Source of the DNA: Escherichia coli O157:H7
Lineage (GTDB): Bacteria; Pseudomonadota; Gammaproteobacteria; Enterobacterales; Enterobacteriaceae
NCBI RefSeq assembly: GCF_013167455.1
Contig: NZ_CP038328.1
DNA length: 64,000 nucleotides
Direction: 5' to 3' (one strand)
This document shows positions 3,001 through 6,000 of this stretch, piece after piece (position 1 is the stretch's first letter; every line of letters starts with the position of its first letter). Position numbers: made by a program.

Positions 3001-6000
3001 ATGAAAAGGAAGGTAACCACACCACAGCATACCGTGATGGTGCGGGTATCTGGACCATCTGCCGTGGAGCCACCCGGGGGGATGGTAAGCCTGTTATTCC
3101 TGGCATGAAGCTGTCGAAGGAAAAATGCGACCGGGTTAACGCCATTGAGCGTGATAAGGCGCTGGCATGGGTGGAGAAAAACATCAGAGTGCCGCTGACC
3201 GAACCCCAGAAAGCGGGGATCGCGTCATTCTGTCCGTACAACATTGGCCCCGGTAAGTGTTTCCCGTCGACGTTTTACAGACGGATTAATGCAGGAGATC
3301 GAAAAGGTGCCTGCGAAGCGATTCGCTGGTGGATTAAGGACGGTGGCAGGGACTGCCGTATTCGCTCAAATAACTGTTACGGTCAGGTATCCCGTCGTGA
3401 CCAGGAGAGCGCGCTGGCGTGCTGGGGAATCGACAGATAAGCAGAATATTTTGCTGAAAAATGAGGTTTGCTTACATGGACGGATAACACGAAATCCTGC
3501 AAATTGGCAAAATGTAAGTGAATAAAGTCAAAGCAGTTGTTTAACACTCAGGCACCGTAATGATGCCTTTGTCATTTCTGCGCATCTCACGCGCATCTCA
3601 CAACACAGAACCTTTCAGGATGACCCTTGAGGATACCGGTTTGGCTGTCGGTGCCTTTCTGTGGGCTGGATTCCTGTGAGACAAGGTTCATCACTAAAAG
3701 GAAATAACCGATGAATATGATGGCCGTGCCGTTTCACGGCAACTCTCTTTATGTAGTTAACCATAATGGCGAACCATACGTTCCCATGAAACCTGTCGTT
3801 GCGGGGATGGGGCTGGCCTGGCAATCACAGTTGGCTAAGTTAAGACAGCGTTTTGCGTCAACTATAACGGAAATCGTTATGGTTGCTGAGGATGGGAAAC
3901 AACGCAATATGGTGTCCATGCCACTTCGAAAACTTGCCGGCTGGCTACAAACCATTAATCCCAACAAAGTAAAACCCGAAATCCGCGATAAGGTCATCCG
4001 GTATCAGGAAGAGTGCGACGATGTTCTTTACGAGTACTGGACGAAGGGTTTTGTCGTTAATCCCCGTAAAATGAGCGTGATGGAAGAACTCAACCAGGCT
4101 TGTGCTGACATGAAACGGGATAAAAACATTGCCAGTGTGTTTGCTACCGGGCTGAATGAGTGGAAACAGGTTAAAGCCGCGCATGTATCAAAAATCCGTA
4201 CGCTGGTAAATGAAGCGAATATGCTGATTGATTTTGTCCTGGCTGATACAGGCAAAGGGAAAATAACAAAGGCGGATTGATGGGGTGGCTAATGATATCA
4301 GATAAACTCATAACGCTGGTGAAGAGCCTCTGTGTACTTGCCGGCATTTCATTTTCACTAATGCTGGTTGCTCTTTTTCTTTCCATGGCCTGGATGGCGT
4401 TGACTTCGGCAGGGCTGGTGGGGTGAGCATAAACCGAATGCTTTCCGCGTTTACCGTTATTCTGCTGGTGGTCTGTGGTGCGCTTAGTCTGGGGCTGAAT
4501 CATTACCGCGATAACGCCATAACCTACAAAGAGCAGCGCGATAAAAAAGTCAGTGAGCTGGAGCTGGCAAATGCAACCATTACTGATATGCAGCAGCGCC
4601 AGCGTGATGTTGCTGCACTTGATGCCAGATACTCGAGGGAATTAGCTGATGCGAGAGCTGAAAATGAAACTCTGCGTGCTGATGTTGCCGCTGGTCGTAA
4701 GCGCCTGCGCATCAACGCCAACTGTCCAGGCTCCTTGCGTAAAGCCCCCATCACCTCCGGCGTGGATAATGCAACCGGTCCCCGACTGGCAGAAGCCGCT
4801 GAACGGGATTATTTCATCCTCAGAGAACGGCTGATGGCAATGCAGAAGCAACTGGAAGGAGCACAGGAATATATCCGTACCCAGTGTATACCGTGATGTT
4901 TTGTTACGAAGGTGTTACTGGTAACGTTAAGGTAATTTAACAAAGAGTCAGTTCCGGACTTTATAGTGTGCTCAGTTCATGGCCAAAAACGATTTCTGTG
5001 ATAAATATTTTGAATATTATTTACAGGTAAATGGAGTGGGGCACATGGATAGAAATATTACAATAGAGTATGAAGTATATGCCCGTATTGTATGGGCAGA
5101 GAAGGCAAAAACATGGTAATTCCGTGTGTTGCCATGATACCTGATTGGCAGAATTGTTGTTTGGTTTTGAGTATATAGTCAGCGTCTTTTGTTCGGTAAT
5201 TGCTCTTTCAATTAAAATGCCAGATATGATTTGCTTTTCTTTGTTGTTTAGTTTTTTTGTATATTATTTTTATTGTTTTTATATAATTAGTTTTTTATTG
5301 TTGTCTTATTAAGGACGGTAAATTCAGGATGGCAGTCTGTAGATAAACGGAGGTTACTTATGCTACATGATCACCTGGCAGAATGTCTGGAGAAAAAAGG
5401 ACTGTACCGGAGAGCAGCTGAACGATGGGCAAAAGTGATGGTACAGCTAAGTGATGACCAGAAAAGAAAAGTGGCGGCACAGAAACGAGCAGAGTGTTTG
5501 CGTAAGGCGCGCCGGACTCCGGTTTCACCGGTGAACCTGACCGAAATAAAACAAGCGGTCAACAGACTACATTCTGAGTTGGGAATGGGATTTGAAGAGC
5601 GGCGGGTATTCCGACGATATAAAGGGACAGGAGAACAGAATACGTCCGGAAACGCGCGGTCAAAAAAATGCTAAAAAATATCTGAGAGCGTTATTGCCTG
5701 TTACCATAAGAAAAAGCGACTTTAGTGGTCGCTTTTTGTGTCATATATAAGTCGTTTAAGTAAACCTGTCTGAACAGGTTCTCTGGTCGTGTTTGTCTTT
5801 GTTGGGTACAAATTGAGAATATTTTTCATTAATTAATCTTCTTCTGCAGGCTTCAATAACCCACGCTGAAAAATTTCCTGAACCTTTCAGATCAAGAGCG
5901 ATGTTAATTTGTTCAATCATCTGGTTTGGAAATCGGATGTTGCGGGTTGTTGTTCTGCGGGTTCTGTTCTTTGATGACATAATGTTGCCCCATATTCAGT

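Follow-up and report, generated by a model that had tools for sequence, protein, structure and literature searches.

Antirepressors decide whether resident prophages remain silent. In the immI region of P1 and P7 (c4 RNA/icd-ant) and in Gifsy-1 (IsrK-orf45-anrP), the messenger RNA (mRNA) of the antirepressor is kept silent by its structure and is opened by the pairing of short loops (PMC4825925). Here, we analyzed a stretch of 64,000 nucleotides from Escherichia coli O157:H7 (contig NZ_CP038328.1 of assembly GCF_013167455.1; hereafter, the window), in which a perfect 11-bp tandem duplication lies upstream of ant, an antirepressor-type gene in the late region of a Shiga-toxin-type lambdoid prophage. 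Comparison of homologous loci places this repeat at the 5′ end of a structured and conserved leader of about 135 nt (3579-3713) on the sense strand of the late transcript. We consider it probable that this leader is a cis-acting, bistable element controlling the translation of the antirepressor-type gene behind it.

The 11-bp repeat and its leader family

The duplication consists of two perfect, back-to-back copies of GCGCATCTCAC at 3580-3601, as seen on reading the sequence and as recovered by Tandem Repeats Finder (period 11, 2.0 copies, 100% matches, score 44). The open reading frame (ORF) of ant begins at 3711, 110 nt past the end of the repeat, and both points agree with the original prediction. 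By simple arithmetic (64,000 x 4^-11), about 0.015 perfect period-11 duplications are expected per 64-kb window, so that the duplication is real and above chance. Tandem Repeats Finder gave no second repeat in 3000-4500, and 12 other rows at a score of at least 40 in the whole window, some of them covering one same array. One additional exact copy of the 11-mer was found on the minus strand at 20270-20280; extended by 2 nt, 20270-20282 is the exact 13-nt reverse complement of CTGCGCATCTCAC and lies within a plus-strand ORF (19636-20334). This was the sole candidate for a trans-acting partner in the window, and it was rejected as probably a chance match (E ~0.1).

We found no copy-number variation among relatives. 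Artificial one-copy and three-copy versions of the sequence had no match of at least 99% identity in 5,426 complete E. coli genomes, and their best matches, at 92.2% and 92.8%, respectively, are what the natural two-copy sequence gives when aligned with an 11-nt gap. The two-copy state is therefore fixed, and in these genomes the locus does not behave as a slippage-prone contingency locus, the copy number of which would vary in close relatives. The original prediction had taken a repeat that was absent or single-copy in all relatives as the outcome that would count against it, and the result was divided: close relatives always carry two copies, and distant relatives carry one copy followed by an unrelated linker.

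The region 3380-3780 (401 bases) is 99.5% identical to 933W, VT2-Sakai and many Stx1/Stx2 (Shiga toxin) phages, and 100% identical to several O157 genomes. BLAST homology with the Salmonella phages ST64B, ST104, PS119 and UPF_BP1 and with the E. coli phage ECP1 runs from 3579/3580 to the start codon, while the lysozyme homology ends near 3532. Elsewhere, the same ~135 nt precede other genes: in P22-like phages they come after Rz, and in ECP1 they stand ahead of a gene for an HNH endonuclease. The leader explains a sharp mosaic boundary seen among lambdoid genomes, since its conserved 135 nt provide a homology patch through which the genes behind it can be swapped. The 5′ boundary of the leader and the two units of the repeat are as follows:

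3550-3579, plus strand: terminator-like hairpin AGGCA...UGCCU (3550-3568) with a T-rich tail, present in the minimum-free-energy fold; 5′ boundary of the leader
3580-3590, plus strand: repeat unit 1, GCGC (3580-3583, 5′ stem) and AUCUCAC (3584-3590, loop) of hairpin H0
3591-3601, plus strand: repeat unit 2, GCGC (3591-3594, 3′ stem of H0) and AUCUCAC (3595-3601, duplicate of the loop in a variable linker)

The leader in each distant phage compared starts just past an intrinsic-terminator-like hairpin. In a simple scan, a hairpin with a T-tract was found upstream of the leader in 146 of 164 distinct contexts (~90%), and several of the misses are visibly terminators.

Sequences were collected in two steps. 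An exact 21-mer from the leader gathered at least 120 viral contigs (type A), from which the covariance model R1 was built. R1 found the window copy at 172.7 bits and, in the fetched loci, divergent copies at 54-56 bits that keep every helix with a different sequence; a scan anchored on these divergent copies gathered at least 120 further contigs (type B). Together, the two subfamilies cover more than 240 loci in phages and prophages of Enterobacterales. Neither R1 nor a regular expression detected a further copy of the leader in the window. When one genome per species was searched with a gapped pattern, 11 of the 13 matches were true copies, distributed over nine genera of Enterobacterales (Serratia, Siccibacter, Arsenophonus, Yersinia (Y. 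pestis), Entomohabitans, Citrobacter, Pantoea, Edwardsiella and Phytobacter), the rest being a contaminant contig and a chance match. A 125-nt leader sequence occurs in 879 of the 5,426 complete E. coli genomes (about 1 in 6), at a median of 3 and a maximum of 10 places per genome, and rarely on plasmids (16 records). The genes directly behind the leader encode KilA-N+ORF11CD3 (69 loci), KilA-N+P63C (23), P22_AR_N+ORF11CD3 (17; the type of the window ant), HNH_3 (12), AntA (6) and ANT (5) proteins, together with two further families without assignment. Since the leader occurs in unrelated phage types and before unrelated protein domains, a protein partner that is specific to one phage or autoregulatory seems unlikely.

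No annotated feature lies under the leader at any of the listed matches in the complete E. coli genomes. An E-value-mode scan of 2000-6500 with Rfam 15 gave three chance-level hits only, none within 3550-3720, and a scan of 2800-5600 of locus L011, which holds both type A and type B copies, gave nothing relevant; the Gifsy-1 leader, used as a positive control, matched isrK, C4 and c4-a1b1. A literature search by sequence strings, locus tags and keywords, incomplete in its coverage, returned nothing on this element. The leader RNA is apparently undescribed so far; it is widespread, unannotated in RefSeq records and without an Rfam family.

Conserved pairings and the alternative helix at the start codon

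When types A and B were aligned jointly with MAFFT (A5), the 5′ strand of P1 was misplaced in type B, and the two types were therefore scored separately (A3 for type A, A6 for type B). The predicted elements of the fold in the window sequence are as follows:

3579-3595, plus strand: hairpin H0, stem U-GCGC/GCGC-A (3579-3583 with 3591-3595) and 7-nt loop AUCUCAC
3585-3590, plus strand: 5′ strand UCUCAC of the kissing helix PK-L, in the H0 loop, pairing with 3676-3681
3604-3610, plus strand: P1 5′ strand CACAGAA, pairing with 3657-3663
3611-3629, plus strand: extended P2 5′ strand, anti-Shine-Dalgarno CCUUU (3611-3615) and GAUGACCCUUG (3619-3629)
3630-3656, plus strand: hairpin P3, lower stem AGG/CCU, upper stem UACCG/CGGUG, apical pair 3641-3647, loop UGGCU
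3657-3663, plus strand: P1 3′ strand UUCUGUG, covarying with 3604-3610
3664-3675, plus strand: joining region GGCUGGAUUCCU, family consensus GGCYGRWUUCCU
3676-3681, plus strand: PK-L 3′ strand GUGAGA, directly adjoining the P2 3′ strand
3682-3701, plus strand: extended P2 3′ strand, CAAGGUUCAUC (3682-3692) and Shine-Dalgarno AAAGG (3697-3701)

In type A (81 distinct sequences), 94.5% of the cells are paired, as compared with 24-54% when the partners are slid by 1-3 columns, and the covariation score is 0.074 versus 0.032 in shuffles, a value reached by 0 of 500 shuffles. Similarly, in type B (65 sequences), 95.3% of the cells are paired versus 29-44% after sliding, with a covariation score of 0.123 versus 0.084 in shuffles (again reached by 0 of 500). 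The frequent G.U/U.G pairs indicate that the structure lies on the sense RNA strand, and not on DNA or an antisense RNA.

An unbiased mutual-information (MI) scan over all column pairs placed the central kissing pair 3587-3679 at the top (MI 1.21, 99% canonical); the counts for this pair are 34 G-C, 31 A-U, 13 U-A, one G.U and a single non-pair. Second in the scan was a P1 pair (MI 1.08, 100% canonical), which is A-U in 60 sequences, U-A in 19 and C-G in 2. P1 is found in eight paired versions (CACAGAA, CUCAGAA, CCAAGAA, CAAAGAA, CCCAGAA, CACCGAA, CGUCGAA and CAUCGAA), the 3′ strand changing to match in every case, and PK-L takes the forms CCGCA/UGCGG, UCGCAU/AUGCGA and CCGCAA/UUGCGG in type B. 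H0 is present in 74 of the 75 distinct type A versions, with the compensatory stems GCGU/ACGC, GCCG/CGGC, GCGCU/AGCGC and AGCACA/UGUGCU. The P3 apical pair is C-G in 39 and U-A in 36 sequences of the MI scan, and other upper stems of P3 are UAACCGG/CUGGUUA, GUCAG/CUGGC and AUCAGC/GCUGAU, with G.U pairs frequent. Many of these compensatory versions come from type B and from the copies in other genera. A terminator flagged at 3634-3653 was rejected, since this segment forms the top of P3, and the U-rich stretch that follows it includes the P1 3′ strand.

Extended P2 pairs 3619-3629 with 3682-3692 and, in its extension, CCUUU (3611-3615) with the Shine-Dalgarno AAAGG (3697-3701), giving 18-22 bp in all; it was also recovered by RNAalifold, which considers nested pairs only. 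Covariation in P2 includes a U-A to C-G change and a C.U mismatch to G.U change in the VT2phi_272 type, and a paired insertion together with a change of the distal CUUUG/CAAAG to UUAGG/CCUAA in type B. The joining region at 3664-3675 is nearly invariant in both subfamilies (A3, A5, A6), and may hold a 2-bp mini-hairpin. As P1 and PK-L both cross P2, the fold is either multiply pseudoknotted or made up of helices that alternate.

These pairings assign different roles to the two units of the repeat. GCGC is its own reverse complement, so that a direct repeat of GCGC is also an inverted repeat, and the two GCGC blocks form the stem of H0. The last 7 nt of unit 2 fall in the linker between H0 and P1, the length of which varies and the sequence of which is unrelated across lineages (A3). 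Among 14 distinct leaders with the AUCUCAC loop, the two units agree at 11/11 positions in four, 10/11 in four, 9/11 in four and 8/11 in two; in the other clades the match is 3-8 of 11, four of which come free from GCGC. The decay of unit 2 to 8-10 of 11 in sister lineages indicates that the duplication is old and fixed. This pattern is best explained by one slippage event that duplicated 11 bp in the common ancestor of the clade with the AUCUCAC loop; the duplication is still perfect in the 933W/Sakai lineage. In this simplest history, the second copy drifted afterwards and the first copy would have been held by its pairing with GUGAGA. GUGAGA (3676-3681) is complementary to both UCUCAC copies, with a calculated duplex energy of -6.6 kcal/mol with either, and the second UCUCAC could serve as an alternative partner on the basis of this calculation. 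The decayed second copies in sister lineages indicate that such alternative pairing is dispensable for the family.

A further conserved complementarity, Alt, was found between the 3′ strand of P3 and the region of the start codon:

3646-3652, plus strand: Alt 5′ strand UGUCGGU, overlapping the P3 3′ strand and complementary to the pre-start spacer
3707-3713, plus strand: Alt 3′ strand, spacer ACCG and ant start codon AUG (ACCGAUG)

The complementarity is kept in eight sequence versions (P3 3′ strand/spacer-start region):

UCGGU / ACCGA
GUCGGAGC / GCUCCGAU
UCGGAU / AUCCGA
UCGGC / GCCGA
GGUUA / UAACC
UGGCG / CGCCA or CGCUA
GAUGCU / AGCAUC
UUGGUAC / GUGCCAA

Alt is paired at 84% in type A (A3) and 90% in type B (A6), as compared with 18-58% after a shift of the partner by 1-3 columns. 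The mean energy of the native duplexes is -8.59 kcal/mol, versus -6.70 +/- 0.21 kcal/mol when the partners are permuted among leaders (best value in 500 permutations, -7.36) and -5.49 kcal/mol with shuffled spacers. The CCGA block lies 0 or 2 nt from the AUG, and right-alignment on the start codon therefore blurs Alt. Alt and P3 share 3-5 nt, so that they are mutually exclusive, and both are kept by compensatory changes. Pseudoknot geometry further suggests that Alt is incompatible with the complete extended P2, since ~20 bp would have to be bridged by only 4 nt. In the window sequence, the energies of the competing folds, taken over their nested parts, differ by no more than ~5 kcal/mol. As judged from these conserved pairings, Alt versus P3 is the predicted anatomy of a switch over the translation initiation region.

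Readings of the leader and its genomic setting

In the reading that we prefer, translational control by a bistable leader, one state would be the compact pseudoknotted fold, which would keep P3 closed and the start codon free, and in the other state the 3′ strand of P3 would sequester the start region. Candidate triggers would include a host factor, a small molecule, RNase III cutting within the ~20-bp P2, and folding kinetics behind an antiterminated RNA polymerase. The Shine-Dalgarno lies inside the P2 extension in type A and 1-3 nt outside the long helix in type B, and the start-codon helix is thus the more general candidate for the "off" state. The leader is a portable, strongly structured element accompanying at least eight different antirepressor-type or nuclease genes, and would be their shared control point. 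Covariation supports more than one pseudoknot in it as well as an alternative helix over the start codon, which makes it directly testable.

Several observations weigh against this reading. Sequestration of the Shine-Dalgarno is not universal, as the type B arrangement shows, and P1, PK-L and P2 may form simultaneously or else alternate, the sequences being compatible with either. The folding energy of the region is ordinary (z = -0.08). A promoter scan limited to sigma-70 found no sigma-70-like promoter in 3300-3900, so that expression would depend on read-through of the upstream terminator. The natural recombinants L098 and L108 carry a mismatched pair in the kissing between the loop and GUGNGA, L098 also having one mismatch in P1, and L031 and L141 have lost GUGAGA through a 7-nt deletion. 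Both collections were made with exact-match anchors, which accounts in part for the lack of variation at 3613-3633 in type A and in the anchor of type B. In addition, the sequences include many close relatives, and the number of independent compensatory events is far below the cell counts. As a separate observation, L098, L108, L031 and L141 could serve as natural loss-of-function alleles.

A more specific proposal is that the leader is a new sensing RNA, either a metabolite or second-messenger riboswitch or a ribozyme, whose pseudoknotted core gates the translation of antirepressor, KilA-N and HNH proteins. The layout is of the riboswitch type, with a structured conserved domain and a mutually exclusive helix over the initiation region, and both P3 and Alt covary. 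The regulated genes are coherent as a set of antirepressor, KilA-N or HNH proteins, and suggest no metabolite. We regard this proposal as rather unlikely; if it were true, prophage cross-induction and late accessory genes in Stx and other enterobacterial phages would be tied to a physiological signal of the host.

It is also conceivable, if improbable, that the element is a self-cleaving ribozyme or an RNase III signal in the ~20-bp P2; either kind of cut would detach each leader-gene cassette from the upstream late transcript and make the ribosome-binding site accessible. The helix order P1-P2-P3-P1′-(mini P4)-P2′, the 7-bp P1 and the 3-bp lower P3 resemble the nested double pseudoknot of hepatitis delta virus (HDV)-like ribozymes, and the highly conserved joining regions, a P2 of 18-22 bp and the tandem cassettes of L011, each with its own leader, would suit ribozyme cleavage or processing. 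Against a ribozyme, no Rfam ribozyme matched at E <= 1, P3 is ~10 bp rather than 3, and the position of the HDV catalytic C holds no conserved C but lies in a segment that pairs with the loop of the upstream hairpin. Moreover, the alternative helix at the start codon points to translational control and not to cleavage.

The repeat might instead be a scar throughout, that is, a neutral product of replication slippage in a leader conserved merely by recent common descent. The position of the second copy in a variable linker, its decay in sister lineages and the stability of the two-copy state all fit this account. However, structural constraint on the first copy, and on GCGC in the second, is clear in two subfamilies that share little sequence there, and the leader is conserved over nine genera ahead of eight unrelated families of downstream genes. 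We consider a pure scar distinctly improbable. The slippage scar suggested in the original prediction is borne out for the second copy alone, a lineage-specific duplicate.

The original prediction had also proposed a paired operator or protein-binding site controlling the expression of ant. The region is probably regulatory, as proposed, but the nature of the site was not upheld. Direct repeats one helical turn apart are a common layout of binding sites, and GCGC-N7-GCGC is kept across the family, as would be expected if a phage repressor, a Cro-like protein or another protein bound there to control an ant promoter. However, no such promoter was detected by the scan described above, and the changes in the stem compensate in the inverted and not the direct sense (GCGU/ACGC, GCCG/CGGC and AGCACA/UGUGCU), so that the conserved GCGC blocks act as an inverted repeat. 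The loop covaries with a site 90 nt downstream, the G.U pairs are specific to the sense strand, and the second half-site is conserved in one clade only. A DNA operator is therefore very improbable. A short hydrophobic peptide (MTLEDTGLAVGAFLWAGFL) starting at AUG 3620, with the conservation being that of a coding sequence, is scarcely credible, for although this AUG is conserved in both subfamilies and one phage record has a small coding sequence over the region (SPUPF_00038, UPF_BP1), there is no Shine-Dalgarno at a usable distance, 1-nt indels within 3654-3660 shift the frame among close relatives, the type B frame ends after 3 codons, and the substitutions are compensatory for base pairing.

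Other candidate regulators were considered and rejected. By-eye inspection revealed no LexA box of the form CTGT-N8-ACAG, and the GGA motifs that might serve as CsrA sites are not conserved in type B. The anti-small RNAs AgvB and AsxR are sited elsewhere in these prophages, at the moron site 3′ of PR′, antisense to stx (PMC4104026). At the junction of repeat unit 2 and P1, 3599-3605 reads CACAACA, which PMC4104026 quotes as the target consensus for the R1 seed of GcvB; several chance occurrences of this 7-mer are expected per window, and it is missing in most other lineages.

In the window, the holin gene (2301-2507) is followed by those for endolysin (2907-3440), ant, Rz/Rz1 (4423-4896) and terminase (from 6367), which places ant between the endolysin gene and Rz. 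The same gene is annotated ant in 933W and VT2-Sakai, and ant lies within the lysis cassette of the late operon in Shiga-toxin phages.

3711-4280, plus strand: ant, 189 amino acids, P22_AR_N and ORF11CD3 domains (Pfam P22_AR_N, E = 1.4e-45)

A moron-type cassette would have its own promoter upstream and a terminator downstream; here, a terminator stands before ~90% of leaders, the cassettes of L011 are in tandem, and the sigma-70 scan showed no consensus in the window copy. L011 (3369-5458, minus strand) carries three tandem leader-gene cassettes after Rz, of types A, B and A, in which each leader stands behind a terminator and ahead of a different KilA-N-type gene. In L125 (VT2phi_272; 1718-2931), an IS3-family element lies a few codons into ant, right after the leader, and splits the leader from most of ant. 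In L055 and L193, the leader is preceded by the 3′ end of a transfer RNA gene (GGTTCGAGTCC...CCA) and not by a lysis gene.

Three further features of the window were recorded. A 616-amino-acid ORF at 2-1852 lies directly upstream of the holin gene and is presumably similar to the esterase gene that follows stx in Stx phages. A large inverted repeat at 6288-6342, with 25-nt arms of 88% complementarity around a 5-nt spacer, lies immediately upstream of the gene for the small terminase subunit (6367); it gave odd hits to microRNA models on both strands in the Rfam scan, and may be a cos-associated palindrome or a strong hairpin. The strongest tandem array of the window, at 42103-42312, has periods of 30, 57 and 60 and scores of up to 318; it is probably repetitive coding sequence within a gene for a tail fibre or the like.

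Comparison with known regulatory RNAs

The leader shares with HDV-like ribozymes the helix order and crossing (P1, P2, P3, P1′, small P4, P2′), a P1 of 7 bp and a lower P3 of 3 bp, and the nested double-pseudoknot order P1-P2-P3-P1′-P4-P2′ is here made up of covariation-supported pairs. It differs from them in that the equivalent of J4/2 is GUGNGA, in which N is variable and paired with the H0 loop, in the lack of a conserved catalytic C, and in its long P3. A P1.1-like pairing of the P3 loop with the joining region (GGCU/GGCY) was considered and rejected, as it is not kept in type B (loop UUAGUG).

A long irregular helix ending on the ribosome-binding site is shared with the lambda N leader, which is acted on by RNase III, and with the rpoS leader, the target of DsrA, RprA and ArcZ. 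As in those leaders, the 5′ strand would have to be removed or displaced for activation, whereas the additional pseudoknots described here have no counterpart in them. With the pseudoknotted translational riboswitches preQ1-II and SAM-II, the leader shares a compact domain abutting the Shine-Dalgarno, conserved joining regions and an exclusive sequestering helix; in contrast to these riboswitches, the genes downstream are regulatory or nuclease genes and not metabolic ones, and the leader has no Rfam match.

The c4/IsrK systems differ from the leader in several respects. They are not homologous to it, as the Gifsy-1 leader matches Rfam isrK, c4-a1b1 and C4 and this leader matches none of them. 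Of the hallmarks of the c4/IsrK type, a promoter was not found in the scanned region, the terminator lies upstream of the whole element, and no leader ORF is conserved in frame. There is here neither a separate terminator-ended small RNA nor a coupled upstream ORF, and the pairing partners lie in cis within a pseudoknotted fold. Nevertheless, c4/IsrK is the closest functional analogue of the leader, for in both the control of the antirepressor would be translational and exerted at the RNA level, through short loops pairing near the ribosome-binding site and through alternative structures.

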